DNA of 62,127 bases, filler included. It is 6 parts of 6 records of this genome, joined end to end, with 100 filler letters (N's around TTAATTAATTAA, not from the genome) between each part and the next. Parts side by side here need not be neighbours in the genome. Positions count along the whole stretch, not along the records: positions 26,093 to 39,569 come from SRR31156797_19037; 5 more parts are not named here. One strand, given 5' to 3'. The stretch's first letter is position 1; every line of letters starts with the position of its first letter. Below the pieces are notes generated by a model. That model worked only from the letters and a program-made list of their open reading frames with translations. It was not told where the DNA came from and ran no database searches. The translations under genes were made by a program, and so were the position numbers. Below are positions 1,155 to 39,569 of this stretch, one piece after another.

Positions 1155-1409
1155 ATGAAAAAGCACAATAAAGACGACAGAAGCGATAATGTGGAAAGAA
1201 TACAAAAAAATATCAATTATACAATAGAAAATATGAGAAAAGCCGATGAAATGATAGACAAGACATCTGATGAAAAGCTAAAGGCTATGCTTGAGGAAAA
1301 AAACGGCAGGCGTCGTGCAGCACTGCGAGGAATGCGTAGTGAAATAAAGGACGAAGCTTTGGACAGAGAAAAGGCATTTCAAGATGATGAACGTAATGGA
1401 TTGATATAG
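1155..1409 (+). CDS. tlp: Small acid-soluble spore protein Tlp
   Basis: DDRSDNVERIQKNINYTIEN...KNGRRRAALRGMRSEIKDEA matches the Tlp family pattern; AAGGAG RBS. Confidence 0.9.
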   Translation: MKKHNKDDRSDNVERIQKNINYTIENMRKADEMIDKTSDEKLKAMLEEKNGRRRAALRGMRSEIKDEALDREKAFQDDERNGLI

Positions 1410-1476
1410 TGGAAGTTGTTAACTGTATACCTGCTAAAACAATATAACTTATTATTTCAATCAGTTGTTTTTCTAC

Positions 1477-1509
1477 CAAAATAATGGCGCACCAAATATA
1501 AGTGCGCCA
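1477..1509 (-). terminator. Terminator of the PadR/DUF1700/DUF4097/peptide operon
   Basis: TGGCGCAC-N9-GTGCGCCA hairpin followed by TTATTTT on the minus strand. Confidence 0.75.
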
Positions 1510-25861: not shown

Positions 25862-25966
25862 AAAGTGAAAAAAGTTTTGCAGATAAAAAAAAGACTCCTA
25901 TATTTGCATCGCTTTTGAAAACAGGGGCACACAATTACAAAGGTAATTAAGTCAATGTTTAAAAAA

Positions 25967-25992
25967 GGGCGATTAGCTCAGTTGGTTCAGAG
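25967..25992 (+). tRNA. tRNA 5' fragment (probably tRNA-Val; anticodon not in contig)
   Basis: GGGCGATTAGCTCAGTTGGTTCAGAG gives the acceptor 5' strand and D-arm. Bacteroidota-type TAnnTTTG promoter element near 25901. Confidence 0.8.
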
Positions 25993-26092
25993 NNNNNNNN
26001 NNNNNNNNNNNNNNNNNNNNNNNNNNNNNNNNNNNNTTAATTAATTAANNNNNNNNNNNNNNNNNNNNNNNNNNNNNNNNNNNNNNNNNNNN
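25993..26092. other. Artificial contig spacer
   Basis: N44-TTAATTAATTAA-N44. Confidence 0.99.
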
Positions 26093-26217
26093 ATTTGTAT
26101 AAGCAATAGCGGCAAAAGTGCTAAATTTAAAGGTCTGCACACCGCTCAAACTTTATCAAAATTTGATGGTTTGTAGCATGCAAACCGCTACTGCTCATAC
26201 AAGTAGCCGTTAGTTTG
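26093..26217 (+). mobile_element. attC-like recombination site (5' end cut by contig edge)
   Basis: Imperfect palindrome TTGTATAAGCAATAGCGG...CCGCTACTGCTCATACAA with an inner hairpin, ending in core G^TTAGTTTG (26209-26217). Confidence 0.7.
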
Positions 26218-26250
26218 AATTAGAAAAAAACCGCAGATAGAAATATTATA

Positions 26251-26880
26251 ATGGATTTACTATTAAAGACTAAGAAAGAATTAGAACGAAATAATTTTGA
26301 GGTATACATCTCTGAATCATCAAAGGCTGCCTACAAAACCTTTGTTGAAAAGATATTGCCGACATTAACAGTAAAAAGTATCTCATATGGTGATTCTAAA
26401 ACTATGCTTGGAACAGGAGTAATTGATTACATAAGAAATAGCGGATTATATAAATTTATAGACACATTTAATCCAGAGAATAGCTGGCGAGAGCAAATTA
26501 TACAAAGAAAAAAAGCATTAACAGTAGACTTGTTTTTAACTGGCAGTAATGCAATAACAGAAACGGGAATCTTGGTAAATCTTGACATGATTGGGAATAG
26601 AATAGCTGCACTAACTTTTGGCCCAAGAAATGTTGTGTTATTTGTCGGAAAAAATAAGATTGTCAAGGATTTAGATTCTGCATTCAAAAGAGTAAAGGAG
26701 ATTGCTGCAATTAAAAATTCCCAAAGTCATAATAATTTAAAATTACCTTGCCAAGTTACTGGTAAATGTTCTGATTGTAGCAGTCCACAAAGAATTTGTA
26801 ACACATGGACGATTACGGAAAAATCATATCCTAAAAATCGGATTAAAATTATTTTAATTAATGAAAGCCTTGGATATTAA
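26251..26880 (+). CDS. LUD-domain (LutC/YkgG-like) protein, apparently a gene cassette
   Basis: LTGSNAIT.TG.LVNLD..GNR, GKNKIV, Cys cluster PCQVTGKCSDCSSPQRICN. Confidence 0.88.
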   Translation: MDLLLKTKKELERNNFEVYISESSKAAYKTFVEKILPTLTVKSISYGDSKTMLGTGVIDYIRNSGLYKFIDTFNPENSWREQIIQRKKALTVDLFLTGSNAITETGILVNLDMIGNRIAALTFGPRNVVLFVGKNKIVKDLDSAFKRVKEIAAIKNSQSHNNLKLPCQVTGKCSDCSSPQRICNTWTITEKSYPKNRIKIILINESLGY

Positions 26881-26896
26881 GCAATAACGCAAACTA

Positions 26897-26980
26897 ATCG
26901 AATAGGCTACCGATAGACTATTAGTCTACCGGAGAACCTCTGACACTACCGTACGTACGGCTATCGTATACGGCGGTTCT
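26897..26980 (-). mobile_element. Group II intron (class C-like) 3' remnant: domains V and VI
   Basis: Minus strand GAACCGCCGTATACG-ATAGC-CGTACGTACGGTAGTGTCAGAGG (DV, CGC triad), then a DVI hairpin ending CCTATTCGAT. No RT ORF or GTGCG 5' end nearby. Confidence 0.88.
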
Positions 26981-27648
26981 TTACATTAAGAGGGAACAAG
27001 GAAGTACCTTTGCCAACCTGATGCTATTCAGGAATTTCATTGTAGATTTGTTTTATGGGTGTATTTTATCTCTGGAAAATAGACTTCTTTTTCCCAGGTT
27101 ATAGAAGTCAATATACCCTGCAATGTTTTTTGTGAATACTTGGCATTGTATTGTAACAAATCGATTTTAGTCGAGGATATTGGCTTACTCCTGAATTGCT
27201 CTTTTATATAGCTTTCTGAGCTCCCATCTATTTTAACCAACGTCTTAATATTTACTAACTAAATACATAGATGAGAGGCTAGTTCATCCAGCCTTAAAAG
27301 CTTCAATCTCTAAAGTACATTAGACAAATCGACCAGAAAATACTTTCTTTAACCTAGAAGTAGTTATATTTTTTAGTACCCTCCATTATATAAACATCTT
27401 AAACATATGTACAAATACAAATATGCATGCTAAAAGAATGCTTTGTGCAGACATTGATATGTCTCAAATTAGTCATTTATAACTTTTTTTGAGCACTTTT
27501 AATATTAGATACATAAGTGCAATTAAAATACACATACGATCATATTTTTGCTTCTATAATTCTTCATATTGCAGGTATCAATCACCTCACCCCCTTTGAT
27601 ATGTTGTATAAAAATCTAATCTATTATTTTAATTAATACCTGTAGTTT

Positions 27649-30240
27649 ATGAAACAAAAAAACACAAAACTTATTCATTTTAAAACAAACCCCAATAGCC
27701 TGGCGAAGTTTGTATTTATTTTTTTGTTTTGTTTGTCGCTTAGTAGCTTTAATAGCATTAAAGCACAACAAAACATTGCCCCTGATGCAACAGTAACCAC
27801 ATCTTATGTGTCCGGATGGGAATCCTTGGAAGCTGTAAATGATGGTAACGTAGGTAGTAGTTCTACAGATAGAACTTACCCTATTTATGGTAACTGGGAC
27901 AGTTCCGGACAGTATAATTGGATAGAATATGAATGGCCAATTTCCGTTCTAATTCAATCGGTAAAAGTGTATTGGTTTACAGATAATGGAGGCTTATTGG
28001 CTCCTGATGATGCATATATCGAATGTTTTGTAAATGGAGAATGGTCTACAACAACTTATCCGGTATCAAATGTATTAGATCAATTCAATGAAGCAACTGT
28101 AGGCGTTACTACATCTAAAATAAGACTTCAAATGAAAAGCAATACCCAGTCTATAGGTATTGTTGAGTTTGAAGCTTATGGAGATGGAGATGCAGATTTT
28201 GAAGCTCCTACTGCATCTGGAACACCAATCATTGTAAGTACAGATGGAACAAACCTTACTTTAAAATTTGATCCTGCTACAGATAATACAGAAATTGCTG
28301 GATATGATATAGTTATTAATGATGAAGTTTACGAAACTTTAACCGATACCATTGGTACTATTTCAGGAATTCCTTCCAATCAATTGTGTTTATTAAAAGT
28401 AGTAGCTAAAGATGCTTCTGCAAACTCTGCATCTTCAGGTAGTGTATGGGTATACACCGGAGCTGAAACAGATCAGTTGACTTCTTTTGATTGGCCGGCA
28501 TATAGCCCTACAATTGCCTATGATTTCAGAGACGAATTTCCAAATATCGAGGAACCTACTGAGAACCTGGTAGATTGTGATAATATAGAAGGAACCATAT
28601 CTGATCGTTGGTGGTCCTTTGTATGGGGTAAAGATGCTCGTTCTGAGATTACCGAAGCAGCTATAACTCCAATGCTGGAAAGATTAAATACAGACTTTGC
28701 ATACTTTAGAGATGTTATGGGATGGCCACCGGATAAGCGAAACAAAAGAGGATATCGCAGTACTGTATATTTATATGGTTCTGGTTTATGTACTGATGAT
28801 GCCGATACGACTGCTTTAGGCGGATGGCAGGGAGCAACCTGGTTCGAAGATGAATCCTGGCCAATGATTCTGGCTTCTTATTATCCTATATATAGCTTTG
28901 ATCCTGAATGCCCTTATGGAGACAGAGAAGCACAAATGGGTGCGATGGTGCACGAAGGTATTCATGCTGTACTAGCAGATATGCCTGGTTGTAAAAACGC
29001 TGCATGGTTCCACGAAGGTGGAAATACCTGGTTACAACAAGAAATGGAGTCCAGAAGAACTGACGATTACAGCTCTATAGGTTTCTTAAATGCAACAAAC
29101 TTTATTGCTCCTTTTATGCCTATTGAATGTTACACCGGATGGTTACAAGATGGTAGCTTTGGTGGCCCTGCTGCTGAAGGTGTAAATATGTTTGAGGGAG
29201 ATCAACAAATCTGTACCTGGAGAAACTTACTAGGAGGAAACCAATATGGAAATGCTTTCCCTACATTTATGGGACAAGTTTTAGGAGATAAAAGTGTAGC
29301 CTGGGTATGGCGTAATAGTTCCAGTAGAGTTTTGGATGCTATTGCCGAAGGAATTGGCGAAATGCAAATTCGAAAATTAATTATGGAGTATAGAGCGAAA
29401 CAAGCTTTATTAGACCTAAAAGAGTGGACTGGCGCCTATAAAAACCTAATGAATTCTCAAGTAGGTATGACTATTAAAGAAGAATGGGAACCTGCATGGA
29501 TTTATCCGGAACCTTGGGTTGCTACTCCTTATGCCAGAACTGAATATAATAGCGAAACTAAAACATTAACTCCAGAAGCCAGAACAACTCCGGGATGGTC
29601 GGGTGGTAACCAGATTCCGTTAAATACTTCTGGTGCATCTATTGGTGATACCGTTTTAATAGACTTTATGCCCGAAAATAGTAATATGACTTGCCAGTTG
29701 TGTTATAGAGATACGGATGGTAACCCGGTATATGGTAAACCAGTATCTTCTGGCAAATGCGGTATTAAACTTGAAACATTACCTTCTAATAATGTTGTAA
29801 TAGCTGTAATAACTAATACTGACTATATTTATGAAGGTGAGGAAACCAGAAAGGCTCATTATAATTATAAAATACAATTGCTTAAAGGTGTGTACCGCAA
29901 AGCAAGTGTTTACAAAAGATGGTATAATTATGATGAAGCTATTGTTGATGTAGTGGATGATCCATTTACCGCAATTGATGAAGATGGAGAAAACAAGCTT
30001 AATTCATTAACGATTCCAAGCCTGGCTCCAATTAATAACAAAGATTACCAACTTCAAAATTTATCTAATGAAGAAAACTCTATAAAGATATTTGACTTAG
30101 TTGGTAATGTTGTTTATATGGATGTATTTAATGATACAGACTACTATATCAATTCATCGGTACTTCCTAATAGTGGAATGTATATAGTAGTTGCTATGTC
30201 AGCAGGTGAAAAATATACTTACAAAATTAAAAAGAGATAA
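27649..30240 (+). CDS. Secreted HExxH metallopeptidase-like protein (discoidin/F5-8-like + FN3 + catalytic domain + probable T9SS CTD)
   Basis: Signal peptide; LEAVNDG...WIEYEW...EFEAYG; APTA...ATDNTEIAGY FN3; VHEGIH + WFHEGG; IKIFDLVG...GMYIV C-terminus. Confidence 0.7.
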   Translation: MKQKNTKLIHFKTNPNSLAKFVFIFLFCLSLSSFNSIKAQQNIAPDATVTTSYVSGWESLEAVNDGNVGSSSTDRTYPIYGNWDSSGQYNWIEYEWPISVLIQSVKVYWFTDNGGLLAPDDAYIECFVNGEWSTTTYPVSNVLDQFNEATVGVTTSKIRLQMKSNTQSIGIVEFEAYGDGDADFEAPTASGTPIIVSTDGTNLTLKFDPATDNTEIAGYDIVINDEVYETLTDTIGTISGIPSNQLCLLKVVAKDASANSASSGSVWVYTGAETDQLTSFDWPAYSPTIAYDFRDEFPNIEEPTENLVDCDNIEGTISDRWWSFVWGKDARSEITEAAITPMLERLNTDFAYFRDVMGWPPDKRNKRGYRSTVYLYGSGLCTDDADTTALGGWQGATWFEDESWPMILASYYPIYSFDPECPYGDREAQMGAMVHEGIHAVLADMPGCKNAAWFHEGGNTWLQQEMESRRTDDYSSIGFLNATNFIAPFMPIECYTGWLQDGSFGGPAAEGVNMFEGDQQICTWRNLLGGNQYGNAFPTFMGQVLGDKSVAWVWRNSSSRVLDAIAEGIGEMQIRKLIMEYRAKQALLDLKEWTGAYKNLMNSQVGMTIKEEWEPAWIYPEPWVATPYARTEYNSETKTLTPEARTTPGWSGGNQIPLNTSGASIGDTVLIDFMPENSNMTCQLCYRDTDGNPVYGKPVSSGKCGIKLETLPSNNVVIAVITNTDYIYEGEETRKAHYNYKIQLLKGVYRKASVYKRWYNYDEAIVDVVDDPFTAIDEDGENKLNSLTIPSLAPINNKDYQLQNLSNEENSIKIFDLVGNVVYMDVFNDTDYYINSSVLPNSGMYIVVAMSAGEKYTYKIKKR

Positions 30241-30272
30241 TAAATTCACTCAACTGATTTAAGTTTTAACTA

Positions 30273-30300
30273 AAGAGGCTGACCATTTGGGTCAGCCTCT
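30273..30300. terminator. Bidirectional terminator between convergent T9SS cargo genes
   Basis: AGAGGCTGACC-ATTTG-GGTCAGCCTCT. Confidence 0.8.
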
Positions 30301-30318
30301 TCTATTTTTCTGAAAATA

Positions 30319-33300
30319 CTATTTAATAATTAATTTAACGTAATTCGATCCTGCTTTTAAGACATAAATCCCTTTAGCCAGGTTCGCAACATTTATGGTT
30401 TCTTTATCTTGATCAGAAACTTTAACTTGTTTTACTTTTTTTCCAGCAAAATCATAGATATCTACAATTCCACTAAAAGTCTTTGCAAACTGTAGTGTAA
30501 TCTCATCAAATGCTGGGTTTGGATAACACTTAAACACTCCATCATCAATTCCTGTACTTACATTAGAAGTTACCATAAGCAATGTGGTATTAATAGCTAA
30601 ATCTTCTCCTCCAACAATAAAAGCTGTTGATTCCGTTGAATAATAACCATCTTTTCCAACCATATAATTATAAATCCCATCCGATAAGCTTACTACTACT
30701 TGTCCGCTAGAATTTGTCGATCCAACAACATTGCCATTTATTGAAACCTCTGCACCAACTATAACACTAGAGCTTTCTTCATCTTTTATTGTAAAAGTTA
30801 TCAGATGTGAATTCGTTAATTCAATAGTTACCGGACTACTCAAAGGATTAAATAAGCCTACAACCTCCTCTGAGGCATCCGAATACATAAAATCATAGAA
30901 AGTATGAATACTACCTTCTCTGCTGGTACGTTTTATTGGTAATGGCAGCGAAACCTCTCCGCTCTCATTACTGCTAAGTATGGCAATCAGTCTATCTTTA
31001 ACACTATTTTCGTCGTTCCTATATTTGGCAATAATTCCAAAACTAATTGAAGCAGGCGAACCATTAACTAAAGTATTAAAGGTAGTTGGTGTCAGCAAGA
31101 TATCTTCAGATCCATCGCCACTTACATTTAAACTTCCTTGTTTAAAAATATGATCAAAAGGATTGGTATCCGTATTCCCTTCTCCATCAATGTCAAAATA
31201 AGTGAATGTTTCTCCTCCGATGGTTAATGTTTCCGGGGTTCCAAATGTATGAACGGTATAATCATAATCGCCATCAGGTAAATTCATCATTACCTGACCT
31301 GATGCATTGGTAACTTCGGAAATATTTCCGATTGAAATGGTTGCTCCCTGCACTGCAACTCCTCCTGAAGTTAAATTAAAGGTAACATCACTATAAACCG
31401 GAAGTGCAATATTCACAGGACTAACCCCTGGATCAAAAGCACCACTTACATCACCTGTTGGACTTACATACATATAATTATTCAACACCATTAATCCTCC
31501 ATCTTCTACCACTACAAATAAATGCGAAGGCAATGGAATTTCCAGCGAACCATTAGATGCTGTTGTTGCTGAAATTAAGGTTACTTCATGTACTTCCCAG
31601 TTACCTATAGCATCATCTGCCGTAATATTAAATGTTGCTGATGCTGATGATCCTCCAACCGTTGTATTAAAGGTGGTGGTTTGTAAAGCTACACTTTCAC
31701 TGGTAGCACCACTAACAGAAATTGGCTCATTATAAACGAATACATTATCAAATACTTTCAGATAACTTTCGTAATCTTCATTATATGTGATCATTTCGCC
31801 TCCAATGTACAACACCTCTGGTGTTCCTGAGATAAATACCGAGTAATTATATTCACCAGCCGGTAATGATAATACAGCCTGACCTGATGCATTTGTTTGT
31901 GCTGTCAGACTATTAATGCCTACCGACACTCCTTCTACAGCCTGTCCGCCTGCAGTTACAGTAAAAGTAATATCATTCAATCCTGGTAGCATAATATTAA
32001 TTGGGGAATCTGAAGGATCAAATAAACCATAAACAATTCCCGCCAAATCGGTATAGGTATAGCTATAAAATTCTAAAATATTAAAATCACGATTTGTTCT
32101 ATGCGTTGGTAATGGCACTTCTACAACTCCTGCTGAAGAGCTTGATGTTGTTACAATGGTTTTTCGTTTTTGATCTCCTCCCTGATTTACATATGCTGCA
32201 GATATACTAAACTGAAGTTCTGAAGGAGAACCACCAGCACTGGTGTTAAAGGTAGTAGTTTGAAGACTTACATTTTCACTTGTATTACCACTCACATTTA
32301 CTTGTCCTATAGCAAAAACATTATCATAGGCATTAGGATCTCCATATGTTCCATGGTCAAAATAGGAGAATGTCATGTCTCCTAGCTGAATGACTTCCGG
32401 AGTACCATATAGTAACACCACATAATCAATATTTCCTTCCGGCAAATTCATTACGGCAACACCTGAAGCGTTAGTCATAGCTGAGCTATTTTCAGTCATT
32501 ACCGTTATTCCTTCTACAGGTTCTCCTGCTGCAGTAACAGTAAAAGTGACTTCTCTTAATCCACTTACAGCAATGGCAACAGGGTCTGCTGCAGGCACAA
32601 ATGTTCCACTTACAGAACCTGCAGATGCCGAATAAATGTACTCAGTAAACTCATAAACATCTCCTCTTCGGCTATCTCGATATGTTGGTAAGGGAATTGT
32701 TAATGTTCCTTCGGCATTAGTACTTATTGCAATTAACTCTTTTGTTTTACTAAAATCGTAAGTACCAATTACACTAAAATCAGCACTTCCCGCACTACCA
32801 TCAACTGTCGTATTAAATGTGGTTACTGGTAACGTAACATCTTCTGATGTATTACCATTCACAATTAAACCGGCATCATATACAAATATATTATCGTAAG
32901 GATCTTCTCCTTCATTTCCATTTCCATCAGTATCCGAATAGGTAATAATCTCTCCGCCGATAGCAATTGATTCCGGTGACCCGGTTGAATATATCGAATA
33001 TGTATAACTTCCATTAGGAATTTCTAAAACAACCTGACCCGAAGAATTAGTTTTACCTTTTGCTTCACCTACCGCAACAGTAATACCTGATACATTTTCT
33101 CCATTGGCAGTAACAGTAAAGGTAACCTCACTATAGGCATTCAAAGCTACAGCTACAGGACTGGATTCCGGATTAAAAGTATTTGAAAGCGTTTCGAAAC
33201 CATCCCAAAACTGGTAATTATTAAATGCCAAAATATTTCCCTGACGATCTGTTCGATGGGTAGGAATAGGTACACTTATCTCACCTTCTTGATTGCTCAT

Positions 33301-34977
33301 CAATTCAGTAATCAATTTGGATTGGACTATTTCCTGAGCATTTGTATAATCAGCTGTTACTTTAAACTCCACAGATTCTGCAACACCACCAACAGTGGTA
33401 TTAAATGTTGTAGTAGTTAAAGCTACTTCTTCAGTCATTTCGTCTGTAACATCCAATGTAGCATCAAAAACAAAAATATTGTCATAGGGATCATCTCCTT
33501 CATTTCCATTTCCATCAATATCCTGAAAAACAACTACGTTTCCTCCTATAGTTAAAACTTCAGGCGAACCATCAGAAAAAATGGAGTAACTATTTGCTCC
33601 TGCAGCAAGCCAAAGATGTGCATTACCTGAAGCATCCGTTTTCGTTTGCTGATCATCTACAATTACATTAATTCCTTCTACAGCATTGGCTCCCGAAGTT
33701 ACATGAAAGGTGACATCATACAGCATTGGTATATCAATAGTAACAGGACTTGAAAGAGGATCAAAAACATCACTAATCACTCCATTATTGTATGTATAAT
33801 TATATTCTGTGAATTCAAACAAATCTCCTCGCCTGCTATTACGGTGAGTGGGTATAGGTAGTGAAACAACACCTGATTCGTTTGAAGTAACACTAACTAT
33901 TGTTTTATTTTTCGATCCACTATAAGTACCAACTATATCAAACATTAGTGATGCAGCGCTACCTGACAAGCTAGTATTAAAAGTAACGGCTTCTAAAACT
34001 ATATTTTCTGAAACATTTCCCCCTGTAACTGTTATGAAACCCTCATAAATAAATATATTATCATAAGGATCCACTTCTCCTGAGGTTCTACCTGGTTCAT
34101 CCAAATAAGTATATGTTTCGCCACCAATTATTACTGTTTCCGGAGTTCCTTTGGTATATACATTATAGGTGTGTTCTCCATCTGCCAAAGTTAAAGTAAC
34201 CTCTCCAGAACTATTAGTTTTAGCTTTATTCCCATTTATATCTAACGTTATACCTTCAATGGCCTCATCTCCTGCCATTAATGTAAAAACAACCTCATTT
34301 AATACAGGAGCAGCGATACTAACCGGGGATGCAGAAGGATCGAAGGTATTGGAAACGCTTCCATAGATATCATAATACATATAATCAAATAAATCTAAGA
34401 TTTCTCCATTCCGGTCATCTCTTTGTATAGGTATAGGAAGTGAATAATCACCATTACTATCACTCATTCCTATAGATAACAATTTGCTTTTTAAACTTCC
34501 GGAACTATTATAATAGGATGCACTAATATAAAATCCCAAAGCAGCATTGCTTCCTGCTATAGTTGTTTTAAATGTAGTTTCATTCAAAGATACATCTATA
34601 GCAGCATCTGCACTAACGATAAGTTCTTGTTGTGCAACAAAAATATTATCATACGGATCTTCATTTTCATCGCCGTTACCATCGATATCTTTATATTCTA
34701 TGCTTTTGTCTCCTATTTGGATGACTTCCGGTGTACCTTTGGTTTTAACCATATAACTATACTCTCCGGCAGACAAATACATGATGGCTACTCCACTGGC
34801 ATTTGTGGGGATTTCTAAACCTTCGACAGCTACATATATACCTTTAACAGGTTCTCCTCCCGAAGTTACATTAAAGGTTATTTTATGTTGTGAAAAAAGG
34901 TTTGTCGTCACAAAAGACGATACAATCAGAATGATGAACCAGGCAATTATCCTGTTCTTGAGATATAAGTTTTTCAT
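30319..34977 (-). CDS. Large T9SS-secreted surface protein with seven ~195-aa repeats
   Basis: Signal peptide; repeats begin at aa ~31, 227, 421, 617, 809, 1002, 1197; CTD CYPNPA...IYDFAGK...LAKGIYVLK...KLIIK. Confidence 0.85.
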   Translation of the reverse strand: MKNLYLKNRIIAWFIILIVSSFVTTNLFSQHKITFNVTSGGEPVKGIYVAVEGLEIPTNASGVAIMYLSAGEYSYMVKTKGTPEVIQIGDKSIEYKDIDGNGDENEDPYDNIFVAQQELIVSADAAIDVSLNETTFKTTIAGSNAALGFYISASYYNSSGSLKSKLLSIGMSDSNGDYSLPIPIQRDDRNGEILDLFDYMYYDIYGSVSNTFDPSASPVSIAAPVLNEVVFTLMAGDEAIEGITLDINGNKAKTNSSGEVTLTLADGEHTYNVYTKGTPETVIIGGETYTYLDEPGRTSGEVDPYDNIFIYEGFITVTGGNVSENIVLEAVTFNTSLSGSAASLMFDIVGTYSGSKNKTIVSVTSNESGVVSLPIPTHRNSRRGDLFEFTEYNYTYNNGVISDVFDPLSSPVTIDIPMLYDVTFHVTSGANAVEGINVIVDDQQTKTDASGNAHLWLAAGANSYSIFSDGSPEVLTIGGNVVVFQDIDGNGNEGDDPYDNIFVFDATLDVTDEMTEEVALTTTTFNTTVGGVAESVEFKVTADYTNAQEIVQSKLITELMSNQEGEISVPIPTHRTDRQGNILAFNNYQFWDGFETLSNTFNPESSPVAVALNAYSEVTFTVTANGENVSGITVAVGEAKGKTNSSGQVVLEIPNGSYTYSIYSTGSPESIAIGGEIITYSDTDGNGNEGEDPYDNIFVYDAGLIVNGNTSEDVTLPVTTFNTTVDGSAGSADFSVIGTYDFSKTKELIAISTNAEGTLTIPLPTYRDSRRGDVYEFTEYIYSASAGSVSGTFVPAADPVAIAVSGLREVTFTVTAAGEPVEGITVMTENSSAMTNASGVAVMNLPEGNIDYVVLLYGTPEVIQLGDMTFSYFDHGTYGDPNAYDNVFAIGQVNVSGNTSENVSLQTTTFNTSAGGSPSELQFSISAAYVNQGGDQKRKTIVTTSSSSAGVVEVPLPTHRTNRDFNILEFYSYTYTDLAGIVYGLFDPSDSPINIMLPGLNDITFTVTAGGQAVEGVSVGINSLTAQTNASGQAVLSLPAGEYNYSVFISGTPEVLYIGGEMITYNEDYESYLKVFDNVFVYNEPISVSGATSESVALQTTTFNTTVGGSSASATFNITADDAIGNWEVHEVTLISATTASNGSLEIPLPSHLFVVVEDGGLMVLNNYMYVSPTGDVSGAFDPGVSPVNIALPVYSDVTFNLTSGGVAVQGATISIGNISEVTNASGQVMMNLPDGDYDYTVHTFGTPETLTIGGETFTYFDIDGEGNTDTNPFDHIFKQGSLNVSGDGSEDILLTPTTFNTLVNGSPASISFGIIAKYRNDENSVKDRLIAILSSNESGEVSLPLPIKRTSREGSIHTFYDFMYSDASEEVVGLFNPLSSPVTIELTNSHLITFTIKDEESSSVIVGAEVSINGNVVGSTNSSGQVVVSLSDGIYNYMVGKDGYYSTESTAFIVGGEDLAINTTLLMVTSNVSTGIDDGVFKCYPNPAFDEITLQFAKTFSGIVDIYDFAGKKVKQVKVSDQDKETINVANLAKGIYVLKAGSNYVKLIIK

Positions 34978-35117
34978 GTGAATAAATTTTAGAATTCATA
35001 AGCCACATGAATTTACGATAGATATATTTAAATGTAAATAGGAAGTTAATTTCTAAAACAAATGAATTAAAGCATCTTATATTCTAATTTGGATTTTTAC
35101 ATTTGGGAAAATGTACC

Positions 35118-38100
35118 TTAACTTTCTTTGCTTAATGTAAAATTAAAGGTGGTTCCTTTACCTGCCTGACTTTCTACCCAAATTTCACCTTTGTTTTGTT
35201 CCACAAACTCTTTACAAATCACTAAACCTAAACCCGTTCCTCTCTCTCCTTGGGTTCCTTTTGAACTTGAAACCCCTTCTTTAAATAACTTTGGAATTAA
35301 AGTGTCTGGTAAACCAACTCCATTATCTGCAATAGAAACCTGTATTTTATCCTTATGATGTTTTGCTAATATGGTAATTTCACCACCATCTCTGGTAAAT
35401 TTTATGGCATTGCTAAGTAAATTTCTAATTACGGTGGTAATCATATCCTTATCTGCATACACTTTCAATTCTGGATCTATATCAATGTTGTATGCAATAT
35501 TTTTGAGTTTTCTATTGTCTTTTAGTAAATCTGATGTTTCTTGAATAGCTTCATTTAAACTAAAATTTACAGGCTCATATTTAACACTTTTAGACTACGC
35601 TCTTGTCCAAGTAAGTAGGTTACTAAGTAAATTATAAATTCTTCTGCTGGATACCTTTATAGTATTTAACATTTGCATTCTGTCCTCATCCTCTAATTCA
35701 TAATAATCTTCTTTAAATATTTCTATAAAACCTAATAATGAATTAAATGGATTTATTAAATCATGAGCAATGATAGATATTAATCGATCCTTGGTAGTAT
35801 TTAACTTATTAAGTTCAGAATTGGCCTTTTTTAAATTATCAGATTGTTCCAAAAGCAACTTTGATTGCGCCTCAATTTTAGCTTGACGCTTTTCCAGTGT
35901 ATTATTTAGATCTATAAGATATTCTGCCTGACTTTGGAGCTCTGCATTACTTTCTTGCAGTTCCAGTGTTTTTTCTTTCACCTGCTCTTCTAACACAAAT
36001 CTCTGAAGCTCCAAATGTCTGGTTCTCATCCATATAACAAGTGAAAGCATCACTATAATCAAAGCGAATGCGACAACTTTAAAAAGAGGTGTTAAGTACC
36101 AGGGAGGCATAACATCTATTACTAATTGACGATAATTAGGGTTCCAAACACCATCATTATTCGCAGCCATTACTTTAAATATATATTTCCCAGGAGATAA
36201 ATTTGTGTAGGTAACACTCCCTCGTCCTTTAACTTTGCTCCAATTATCATCAAATCCTTCTAATAAATACGAGTATGTATTTTTTTCCGGATTAATAAAA
36301 TTTACAGCTTTAAAGTCAATGGTGAACACATTTTGACTATATAACAATGATACTTTAGGCGCCGTTAAAATACTTTCCTCAATGATTTCCGGATTCTTCT
36401 TATAACTCACAGATTTATTGAACATCCTAAAATCAGTTAATACAACATCTGGTGGTAAATCATTATAAACTAACTCTTCCGGATTAAAAATGGTTAATCC
36501 ATCCACACCTCCAAACATTAAAGTATTTGTATAATCGTTTTTATACATGGAACGCACAATATATTCCGATACACCTAAACCATCATCATAATTAAACTCT
36601 TTCAATTTATTTGTTTGAGGATTTAATTGAAAGAGTGCAGAAGATGTGCTTACCCAAACATTTCCTTTATTATCATCTATAATACCACAAACAGATTGCC
36701 CTTTAAGATAGTTTGTAAAACTATCACTCTGAGAATTATATCTGGATAATCCTCTGGAAGTTCCAACCCATAAAATTTTAGATTTATCCCTAAACAAAAC
36801 AAATACCTGGTTGTCTGCAATGGCATTTGAATCATTATTTAATGTATAATAATTTTTAAACTGACTGGTGTTTTTATCTAATCGACTAAGTCCCCAAGCT
36901 GTTGCCACCCATAAATTATCATGAGGCCCGTACGACATATGAAAAACCCAATCATTACTCAGGTTACTATTTTCAGAGTTGTAGTTATTAAAGGTATGTC
37001 CATCGTAAAAATCAACCCCTTTTCCATGAACTGCAAACCAATAACAACTATCTTGTGTCTTTAAAATACAACGTATATCATTTCCTGATATGGACGAGCT
37101 ATCCTCGTATTCTTGCTTTAATCTTTTTACCAATTGGTAATTCTCATCATAAAAATGTAATCCCTGATCGTATACCGATACAATCATCTGATTTTGGTAC
37201 CCTTTATCAATAGAAATAATGCTACCTTTTTCAAGGCCATCTTTTCCTGATTCCAATCTATCCATTTTGGCATTAGTCCAATCCACAATATCTATACCTC
37301 CATTGTAGCTACCCGACCAAAGCCTGCCTAAATGATCCTCCTGAACTGCAGAAAAATCTATATTTACAGTATGGAAAAATTCATATTCATCACTATTTAA
37401 TACCTGAAATCCTCTGTCTACAACACTTAAGCCTAAACCTCCAGGATAATGCATTACCCAGTAATTTCCCTGTTTATCCTGAAAAACACCTCTACTACCT
37501 CCTCTTATTGAGAAATTACTTTTGCCTGGATAATATCCATAGAAATCCCCTGTTGATTCATCGAAATGCTTAATACCCGTATAATCTGCAGTCCATATAT
37601 TTTCCTGCTTATCTTTATAAATAAACAGTACGTTATTGGTATCTGGATCTGAATTTAGAAGAGTTTTTAATTGCTTTTTTTGCATATCATAAGCGAAAAC
37701 TCCCTGGCCTTTAGTTGAAATATACAGAATGTTATTTTTACTTATCATTCCAGTAACCGCCTCCAAAGGTATACCTTGAGGGATATGGCTAAATTCAAGA
37801 AGTCCGTCCTTTTCACTATAGTAGAATAATCCTGGCGATTTTTCCACTCCAATCCACATTGAATTATCTTCATTTAGTAAAAAACATGTAATTCCTTCTT
37901 TGACCGAGACAATAGTATAAAACGTGTCTTTAACAGCATCGTACCTGTTAATTCCGGAATAAGTAGCCAAAACTACATCCCCATTTTCATCCTCGCTAAT
38001 TTGTTTAATATGGCTTTCTTTAAGCCCTTTAGTATCTTCATTATAAACTATTCGACGAAAATACCCTTTTCTAAAATCATACTTAGCTAAACCGTTTGTA

Positions 38101-38396
38101 CCTCCAACCCAAAGGTCTCCTGCTTTAGTTGTATATAAATCGGTTATGGAAGCACCTGGAATAGTGGTTGAATCATTAGGTATAAAATCAAAAGCCTTTA
38201 TATGGTTTTCACATATTCGGTTTAATCCATTAGTGGTACCAGCCCATATAAATCCCATCGTATCCTGCTCAACACAACTTATATAAATGCTCGATAAACC
38301 ATCCTGTTTGGTAAAATATTTAAATTTTAAATCAATAGAATCTGCATAAACTACACAACCCCAAAGAATAAAAATACTGACCAACAATTTTTTCAT
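35118..38396 (-). pseudogene. Beta-propeller/Y_Y_Y sensor histidine kinase interrupted by one in-frame TAG (35595-35597)
   Basis: Reg_prop repeats, YTNLSPGKY, TM, HisKA IIAHDLINP. After the TAG the same frame continues SKSVKYEP...RNLLSNAIKFT...DNGVG...GTGLGL to 35118. Confidence 0.85.
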
Positions 38397-38508
38397 TTAT
38401 CCCAAACTTTAACACAACTTAATAATGTACGCAATTCAACAAGGAATAGTTCTGATTTATTTAGATAAATAATCGAATGCTATTATTATCCATACTTAAC
38501 TACTAATA

Positions 38509-39432
38509 TTATAATCTAATTTTATATTTTTTTAGTCTCTCATCCAGCATTTTCGATGGTATAATAGACTTTACAGTATCAGCCACAGCATTTATCATTC
38601 TCTCTTTTATAAAATTCTTTTTTATCACTACCGATATTTCTCTGATAGCCGGTGGATCCATAATCTCTCTTACATTCTTTCGCTGTTCCTCTGTAAGATA
38701 ATCCAAATGTAACTCCGGAATAACAGAATATCCGCCATTTATATCTACAATACGCACAAGTGTATCAATACTTCCTGCTTCAAAAGTATGATTATAAGGC
38801 ATTGTTGTGGTACAAAAATTAAAAATCTGATCTCTAATACAATGTCCTTCTTCCAGAATCCAAAGGTTATCCTGAGGCATATCTTCTGCAGAAAGCGGTA
38901 CATCAATATGTGGATGATCTTTAGAAAAATAAGCCACAAATTTTTCATAATAGAGTGGAATTTCATAAAAATCCTCTACCTCCAGTGGTGTAGCTGCAAT
39001 AAACATATCAACTTTTTCATGTTTAAGGGCTTCAATTAAGGTTTCCGTATTCATCTCAGACAAACTCAATTGTACTTCTTTGTATTTCTCCCCGAATGTT
39101 TTTATAAACGAAGGAATCAAATAAGGCGACAATGTTGGAATAACGCCTACATGTAATGGGCCGGATAAAGATTCCGTTTCAGCAAATACCAATTCCGAAA
39201 CTTTTCGCATCTCTCGAATGGTGCTTTCGGCTTGCTCTATAATTCGCTTTCCAATAGGTGTTGGCTCAACCGGATGTTTGGTTCTGTCAAAAATTGTCAC
39301 ATCCAATTCCGTTTCTAATTTTTGAATCATCATACTAAGTGTAGGTTGCTTAACTCCACAAGCTTCTGAAGCAGCCACAAAGTGCCTGTATTTATCGACT
39401 GCTATAATGTATTCTAATTGTTGAAATGTCAT
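38509..39432 (-). CDS. oxyR: Hydrogen-peroxide-sensing LysR regulator OxyR
   Basis: LysR HTH (QPTLSMMIQKLE), GVIPT, redox Cys pair GHCIRDQIFNFC. Confidence 0.92.
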   Translation of the reverse strand: MTFQQLEYIIAVDKYRHFVAASEACGVKQPTLSMMIQKLETELDVTIFDRTKHPVEPTPIGKRIIEQAESTIREMRKVSELVFAETESLSGPLHVGVIPTLSPYLIPSFIKTFGEKYKEVQLSLSEMNTETLIEALKHEKVDMFIAATPLEVEDFYEIPLYYEKFVAYFSKDHPHIDVPLSAEDMPQDNLWILEEGHCIRDQIFNFCTTTMPYNHTFEAGSIDTLVRIVDINGGYSVIPELHLDYLTEEQRKNVREIMDPPAIREISVVIKKNFIKERMINAVADTVKSIIPSKMLDERLKKYKIRL

Positions 39433-39435
39433 GAT

Positions 39436-39471
39436 ATAGATTTTATTTATACAAATATAGAAAATATCTGT
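39436..39471. promoter_or_regulatory. Putative OxyR binding site in divergent promoter
   Basis: ATAG-N7-TTAT-N6-ATAG-N7-CTGT resembles the OxyR ATAG-N7-CTAT tetrad array. Confidence 0.6.
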
Positions 39472-39569
39472 TTGATTGATATCGATAGTCGCAGTATGTT
39501 TGTATCAGAAATAAAACGAAAACACAATTAAAGTTTAATAATCACTAGTGTCCGGTAAAAAGTAACTGG

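Follow-up and report, generated by a model that had tools for sequence, protein, structure and literature searches.

A probable integron-type LUD gene cassette next to the remnant of an attC-homing group II intron in a Bacteroidota genome

Here we describe how a LUD-domain gene, found in a stretch of 62,127 nucleotides of joined contigs (hereafter the window), is bounded on one side by a folded-hairpin recombination site and on the other by the end of a group II intron. With good confidence, we regard this gene as an integron-type cassette at the far end of an array, within a Saccharicrinis-like genome of the Marinilabiliaceae. The cassette begins with the TT of the G/TT core (26210) and extends as far as the R'' box that follows the stop codon, and an attC-homing class C intron has entered the bottom strand of the cassette's attC at the GT/T of that box, antisense to the gene. 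A preliminary description of this locus had already proposed an integron-like cassette with a group IIC intron inserted at the downstream attC core; its observation is confirmed by our analysis and its interpretation supported, with the correction that the intron is a relic and that the body of the downstream attC has been lost.

Integrons are the textbook device for gene capture. Their arrays are made up of co-oriented sites that each come after a single ORF, and the attC site itself is an imperfect palindrome of ~57-141 nt between R'' (..AAC) and R' (GTT..). The excerpted parts of two sources regard the extra domain of the integrase as a defining feature that cannot be dispensed with (bioRxiv 10.1101/2022.02.06.479319, PMC8138268). 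Likewise in excerpt, Bacteroidota are listed among the integron-bearing phyla (PMC8618304; bioRxiv 10.1101/2022.02.06.479319), and genome surveys have turned up hardly any integron in the Bacteroidetes, for which IntegronFinder 2.0 gives a single complete one, that of Salinibacter (PMC9024848).

Results

The locus is located at the left end of one of six contigs, which are joined in the window by five identical linkers of the kind included in Table 1. It had been put forward that the contig breaks inside the hairpin; this break is a true contig end at 26093, next to one of the artificial linkers. The landmarks around the gene are where they had been placed beforehand: the hairpin ends in GTTAGTTTG at 26209-26217, the gene begins 33 nt downstream with its start codon at 26251, and the inverse core CAAACTA occupies exactly 26890-26896, 9 nt past the stop codon TAA (26878-26880). 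On the minus strand, the 3' end of an antisense group II intron (...CCTATTCGAT) is joined directly to this core, reading TAGTTTG.

Table 1. Features of the locus; positions are those of the window
Feature	Position	Strand	Basis or remark
Contig carrying the locus (SRR31156797_19037)	26093-39569		locus at its left end
Artificial contig joint, N44-TTAATTAATTAA-N44	25993..26092	no strand	not biology
attC-like site of the preceding cassette, ~130-nt imperfect hairpin	26093..26220	- (bottom strand = minus)	R1 match
R' core G/TT with 8 distal bases, AGTTTGAA	26209..26219	+	end of homology and box complementarity
Cassette gene, 209-aa LUD-domain protein	26251..26880	+	PF02589
Left part of the LUD cassette's own R'' box (CGCAAACTA)	26888..26896	+	ends at intron junction
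Class C (attC-homing) group II intron, 3' remnant only	26897..27016	-	nhmmer profile
Unassigned non-coding DNA, AT-rich (30% GC), in the place expected for the missing intron part and the attC body	27017..27648	no strand	

R1 is a covariance model derived solely from target sites that 34 related introns occupy in other genomes, and the hairpin of the window forms no part of it. R1 matches the window at 26090-26220 (-) over its whole model length, with 53.4 bits and an E-value of 1.6e-12, against 9.5 bits for the next best match in 62 kb. With filters off, the hairpin reaches 50.0 bits against 9.2 for the next best match, and by this measure the window holds no second site besides the hairpin and the R'' stub behind the gene. 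As a control, 510,232 bases of 69 unrelated LUD loci gave no R1 match. Model positions 130-132, the conserved TGT that is IBS1 of the intron, fall on Ns of the linker, which means that the contig ends 3 nt before the predicted intron junction.

The AAC box of the site is present (GTT in the top strand, 26209-26211), and its stem reads, by eye, as continuous, with two G-T pairs and without obvious extrahelical bases. The site has the length of an attC palindrome, and its R'' end, 3 nt short in the window, is whole in three close copies. These were found in metagenome contigs through an exact 29-nt word from the contig start; they are 91-92% identical to the window only from 26093 to 26211/26212, with unrelated flanks on both sides, and score 72-79 bits with R1. 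All three run on with ...ACAAAT-TGT/T, the TGT/T being what is missing in the window, and their AAC-side boxes all differ. The copies lie in arrays; L184 and L185 carry more co-oriented sites, and one ORF separates the two sites of L184. We conclude that the hairpin at the contig end is well beyond chance, and that it is a recombination site of the folded-hairpin type, from an attC family of Bacteroidota.

The predicted boundary of the cassette lies after G26209. The gene that follows matches PF02589 with an E-value of 1.4e-40 and 139.4 bits (cut-off 22.6), covering profile positions 3-189 of 189. The bases beyond R' can pair with those of the next R'': in addition to the GTT/AAC triplet that they adjoin, the distal boxes 26212-26219 and 26888-26895 are complementary at 6 of 8 positions, for which the chance at fixed positions is ~0.9% according to a binomial calculated by hand from the local base composition, as opposed to a tool result. 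The site and the start codon are 30 nt apart, and the stop codon and the intron junction 16 nt. In an array of the related genome G007, described below, start codons follow their site at a median of 38.5 nt, and the next site comes at a median of 16.5 nt behind the stop codon. The locus agrees with these values. The window presents one whole site and one R'' stub, and full arrays are seen in its relatives. On the bottom strand, the R'' box is the 3' exon of the intron, T/AGTTTGCG.

A profile of 45 full-length intron relatives matches the window only at the remnant (E 2.1e-19; 9.7e-19 when the whole window is searched), over profile positions 1833-1952 of 1952. These 120 nt contain the end of domain IV, domain V (~26945-26977) and domain VI (26897-26940). 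Over its last ~100 nt, the remnant is 83-87% identical to introns of the related genomes G001 and G005, and compared with L082 the helix of domain VI shows a compensatory paired change by which pairing is preserved. As such, the intron piece that had been reported up to 26980 is real (E 2e-19), but it extends to 27016 and comprises only the last 6% of an intron. The Rfam scan that had been suggested for it leaves the intron in the window uncalled, both at the gathering score and at E<=10, and an exact domain V pattern has 0 matches in the genome contigs searched. The 62-kb window does not contain a reverse transcriptase (RT), and tblastn with the RT of a relative gives nothing credible. Since the profile matches only the 3' end and no credible RT is found, the window appears to hold a dead 3' remnant without RT, next to a cassette that lacks its own hairpin body as well. 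The AT-rich stretch to its right gave no intron, RT or R1 signal, and carries a 67-aa ORF without Pfam match. A 19-aa stretch resembling an RT C-terminus at 27263-27316 (-), TLEIEAF-KAG*TSLSSMY (E 4.7), was discounted as noise, since the intron profile gives no signal there; it is ~210 nt out of register with domain V.

A later deletion would have removed the first 94% of the intron together with the attC body. Without them, excision of the cassette would no longer be possible, and the intron would be dead. A misassembly at a repeat could, in principle, also account for the truncation at 27016/27017. The left end of the contig lies 3 nt away from the equivalent target position of the upstream site, where a full-length multicopy intron would break the assembly. 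We find it rather probable that such an intron occupies the upstream site and caused the break; the alternative for the contig end at 26093 is strain variation at the cassette boundary. The draft contigs L111, L134 and L161, which consist of intron only, begin with TGT followed by the intron. This indicates that the collapsed repeat includes the TGT, and unique flanking DNA would then be expected to begin directly behind it, as the contig does at 26093. A pattern of assembly breaks like that of the window is also seen in the draft genome of M. fragile, where G001:C39:2-134 starts at the junction end of a site and G001:C66:1-86 inside the 3' end of an intron.

The class of the intron was read from its full-length relatives. 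One of these, L091, scores 118.5 bits with RF02001 (gathering 32) and 37 bits with RF01998 (gathering 35), and stays with 32.6 bits under the gathering score of 40 for RF00029. Its 451-aa ORF has RVT_1 and GIIM domains only, and reaches 367 bits with TIGR04416 (cut-off 300). The best structures for this RT are those of class C, 7uim (1.9e-95) and GsI-IIC 6ar1 (6.4e-90), with far weaker matches to LtrA (1.9e-34) and 6me0 (1.1e-31). Judged by these sequence matches, the full-length relatives are class C introns, and their RT is without an endonuclease domain.

Fetching 78 loci that encode relatives of this RT yielded 52 unique insertion sites. The ends of these introns read xTGT/GTGYGCCCTGCAT... 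and ...CTAYTCGAT/T, and the first base of the 3' exon is T in 43 of the 44 sites for which both ends were found. An AAC lies 120-127 nt upstream of the junction in 36 of the 52 unique sites; among the aligned target sites AAC is invariant, and the TGT before the junction is at least 90% conserved. When the empty sites are reconstructed, they fold as one long hairpin with the outer arms ..YAACG.. and ..TGT/TRRRY. RNAalifold predicted no structure for the MAFFT alignment of 34 sites. A helix of 20 pairs was then written by hand, and its pairs were counted against 500 shuffles, resulting in 66.1% paired cells (52.6% in the shuffles) and a covariation of 0.321 (0.139 in the shuffles), with none of the 500 shuffles reaching either value. 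The true register of this helix beats all slid ones, of which a slide of -1 comes close with 0.301.

An R1 match ends at the junction in 43 of the 52 insertion sites, and in 9 of the 18 sites outside the training set. The expectation that full-length relatives home to attC-like sites therefore holds for the 43 insertions, and the sites missed by R1 comprise one clear terminator, the only one (L138), and several shorter or longer hairpins. In L138 (~880-940), an intron relative follows a GC-rich stem and a T-run, which is terminator-like and not attC-like. A longer type of target, of ~190 nt, was seen in L091 (1450-1644), L099 (729-919), L101 (724-919) and L103 (701-896); it includes an inner hairpin, GAGCCAAA...TTTGGC, and is matched only weakly by R1, with 24-45 bits.

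The sections available of two papers describe how IIC-attC introns insert into the bottom strand of attC at TTGT/T of R'', in antisense, thereby splitting the gene from its attC, and furthermore that they can use terminators and that a 5'-truncated copy within an array is on record (PMC7923331, PMC3001079). The insertion layout, i.e. bottom strand, R'' and antisense to the cassettes, is found both in the present lineage and at the junction in the window, and the geometry noted earlier for the window is as these papers have it. Such introns would recognise a DNA hairpin together with a 3-4-nt IBS1 (TGT) and a 1-nt IBS3 (T). With S.ma.I2 and other IIC-attC introns (Leon & Roy, Quiroga et al., cited in these two papers), our lineage shares the xTGT/T junction, a class C RT without endonuclease domain and a hairpin as target. 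It differs in that its hosts are Bacteroidota, whereas those of the known ones are mostly Proteobacteria, and in the family of attC that is used; moreover, the window contains only 120 nt of intron. The likeness to the known introns lies in insertion layout and RT class. Terminator-homing class C introns are similar in RT class and in their insertion after a DNA hairpin, as exemplified by an IncC plasmid intron (L183; 39.8% RT identity), but the latter lies among backbone genes, in the sense direction, and outside any cassette site. This match had been a candidate for a proteobacterial IIC-attC reference, and was rejected as such, being a backbone intron.

R1 has matches in all five related genomes searched, 24-87 in four of them and 2 in the fifth, so that the hairpin belongs to a multicopy family, in agreement with what had been anticipated. 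The largest array examined, in G007, contains 88 sites in 77 kb, all of them on one strand. In 84 of these sites both boxes are present, and for these the 8 nt distal to AAC were compared with the 8 nt distal to GTT. When the AAC flank of one site is set against the GTT flank of the next, 76 of 83 pairs are complementary at 6 or more of 8 positions (mean 6.19). Flanks of the same site reach this in only 12 of 84 cases (mean 3.58), flanks in reversed order in 9 of 83, and all other flank pairs in 13.9%. Complementarity thus spans the cassette and not the site, which is the footprint of a crossover at G/TT in which the distal box moves along with the next cassette. Of the 87 intervals, 54 have their longest ORF on the strand opposite to the sites and 9 have it on the strand of the sites; the remaining 24 are without an ORF of at least 40 aa. 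That other copies of the hairpin bound single ORFs with complementary cores, as would be required of cassettes, is therefore seen in the G007 array, and also in the metagenome contigs.

Within this array (G007:C3:2482519-2556910; L178-L182), we observed some two dozen near-identical units of 251 nt, which have no ORF of at least 40 aa and carry the boxes ttgcctacAAC ... GTTgttggcga; many of the 24 intervals without ORF are copies of this unit. Two further tyrosine recombinases, one of 311 aa (G005:C1 2504276-2552441 and elsewhere) and one of 301 aa (G006:C1 1273720-1983157 and elsewhere), are present in or beside arrays in many copies of identical score. These repeated recombinases may represent a mobile element that lives in the arrays.

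The tyrosine recombinase that had been expected in linkage with such sites adjoins the arrays of the relatives, and none is present within the 62-kb window. In G007 (two arrays), G005, G006 (two) and G008, it lies directly upstream of the arrays and has the orientation of the cassettes. The first cassette of G007 has its partner box in G/TTGTAGCCA, 134 nt after the stop codon of the recombinase. The two array-side proteins that were examined measure 583 and 479 aa and score 227 and 192 bits with TIGR02249, below the cut-off of 265, and none of the five related genomes has a TIGR02249 match above that cut-off. The best PDB match is VchIntIA (2a3v; 7.1e-40), in two pieces. Residues 181-243 of IntI4, a segment that we take to carry the IntI-specific insertion, are replaced by 21 residues in the array-side recombinases. 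Their N-terminal 200-290 aa contain no Pfam family above cut-off, and cannot be aligned between the two proteins.

The genes of the window differ in the relatives to which they point. LysR, on the same contig as LUD, is 77-78% identical to its counterparts in G005 and G006 and 42% to that of Marinifilum, and MiaB, on the neighbouring contig, is 80% identical to G005 (only) and 64% to Marinifilum. LUD is 70-71% identical to G005 and G006, and 78-80% to Marinifilum. The neighbouring genes therefore point to a Saccharicrinis-like host and LUD points the other way; LUD would have been acquired horizontally from a Marinifilum-like lineage. In 80 LUD loci that were fetched, the homologues are ordinary chromosomal genes, none is adjoined by a site, and their flanks show no synteny with those of LUD in the window at the DNA or the protein level. 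Together with its discordant affinity, this absence of sites next to LUD homologues points to the capture of a gene from a chromosome and to its horizontal transfer. Only one of these loci, L001 of M. fragile, has a site at all, at 1362-1489 (-). It is a lone site of 38.5 bits, directly after a 144-aa ORF and 2.5 kb upstream of the LUD orthologue, and relative to that gene it is oriented like the site of the window.

Discussion

The reading of LUD as a cassette has to be weighed against the possibility that it is a resident chromosomal gene, which merely borders the last attC of an array, and that the intron remnant derives from another hairpin, with a box match due to chance. The absence of sites next to LUD homologues, including the Marinifilum orthologues at 78-80%, feeds this possibility as well as that of capture, and the lone site upstream of the M. 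fragile orthologue, in the same orientation, would fit a resident gene too. So would the absence of an attC body downstream in the window and the use of a terminator by the intron family at least once (L138), and in the repeat-rich G007 array a box match of 6 out of 8 occurs in 13.9% of non-partner pairs, as given earlier. Against this stands the 3' exon, beginning with T + AGTTTG, whose complementarity to the distal box upstream is exact and in fixed register, with a hand-calculated chance of ~0.9% for 6 of 8. Moreover, the distance from stop codon to junction equals the array median, the phylogeny of LUD is discordant with that of its contig, and the intron lineage has made 43 of its 52 insertions in attC-like sites. 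On balance, we hold a resident gene to be unlikely.

Another explanation would be that a cassette was caught while forming. A hypothesis has been advanced, in the portion seen of PMC7923331, by which IIC-attC introns join a gene to an attC through homologous recombination between two intron copies, and the junction of gene and intron in the window would then be an intermediate of this process. The intron does separate LUD from the position where its attC is expected, and the closest homologues of LUD are chromosomal genes outside cassettes. The 5' boundary, however, already has the partner box of the 3' R'', which implies that recombination at G/TT has already happened; in addition, the intron is antisense, as it would be after insertion into an existing attC, and it is truncated, with no attC following it. 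A forming cassette is therefore highly improbable in our view.

Lastly, a REP-type repeat or terminator with cores by chance, to which the weak z-score of the hairpin fold taken alone (-1.99) and its single copy in the window might point, is refuted by the R1 match with its empty 510-kb control, the metagenome copies and the complementarity across cassettes, in addition to which there is no T-run and the copies are homologous precisely as far as the AAC and GTT boxes, leaving this explanation next to no probability.

With LUD as a cassette, its movement would have been catalysed by a Xer-like tyrosine recombinase of the kind that is found beside the arrays of the relatives. In the relatives, the likeness to sedentary chromosomal integrons such as that of V. 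cholerae, with VchIntIA, is extensive: long arrays of same-strand hairpins with AAC/GTT cores, units with mostly one ORF on the other strand, a crossover at G/TT, and a recombinase with an attI-like G/TT junction at the head of the array. The differences all lie with the recombinase of the relatives, which is without the insertion segment, carries an N-terminal extension of 200-290 aa and is co-oriented with the cassettes. Neither in the window nor in the five relatives did we find an IntI with its specific insertion beside an array; as recombinases without that insertion, scoring below the TIGR02249 cut-off, they do not make canonical integrons by the definition of the field. Judging from the site and box patterns, the arrays of the relatives would nevertheless work like integrons.

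What does this imply for integrons in this phylum? In the parts of the literature covered by our search, we found no account of such arrays, of an insertion-less recombinase or of attC-homing introns in Marinilabiliales, and nothing specific to such arrays or introns for Bacteroidota. We would give an even chance to the broader proposal in which the window belongs, as a single branch, to an integron lineage that spans the phylum Bacteroidota and escapes standard integron searches. Such a lineage would have its own attC family of ~130 nt, a Xer-like recombinase without the insertion that is held to be essential for recognition of attC, and its own attC-homing class C introns. LUD would then be a housekeeping-type gene from the chromosome of another family, frozen at the end of an array by invasion of an intron and a deletion.

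In this locus, the intron is in effect a biological probe that independently points out a recombination hairpin. A relic of 120 nt opens the way to Marinilabiliales arrays with as many as 88 cassettes, along with a recombinase that lacks the IntI insertion, and raises two testable questions: whether hairpins of the attC type can be recombined without that insertion, and whether attC-homing introns arise repeatedly or travel with the cassettes. Closer by, the locus flags LUD as DNA that the marine Bacteroidota genome has acquired, and offers an explanation for the break of its contig.

Two observations concern the surroundings of the locus. The preceding contig breaks off (25966-25992) within what looks like the 5' portion of a tRNA gene, GGGCGATTAGCTCAGTTGGTTCAGAG; neither Rfam nor ARAGORN finds a tRNA in the window, and both are silent on this end presumably because the gene is cut off. 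To the right of the locus, two large proteins are encoded, of 863 aa (27649-30240 +) and 1552 aa (30319-34977 -), which both have Por_Secre_tail sorting domains (type IX secretion), the 1552-aa protein being highly repetitive.
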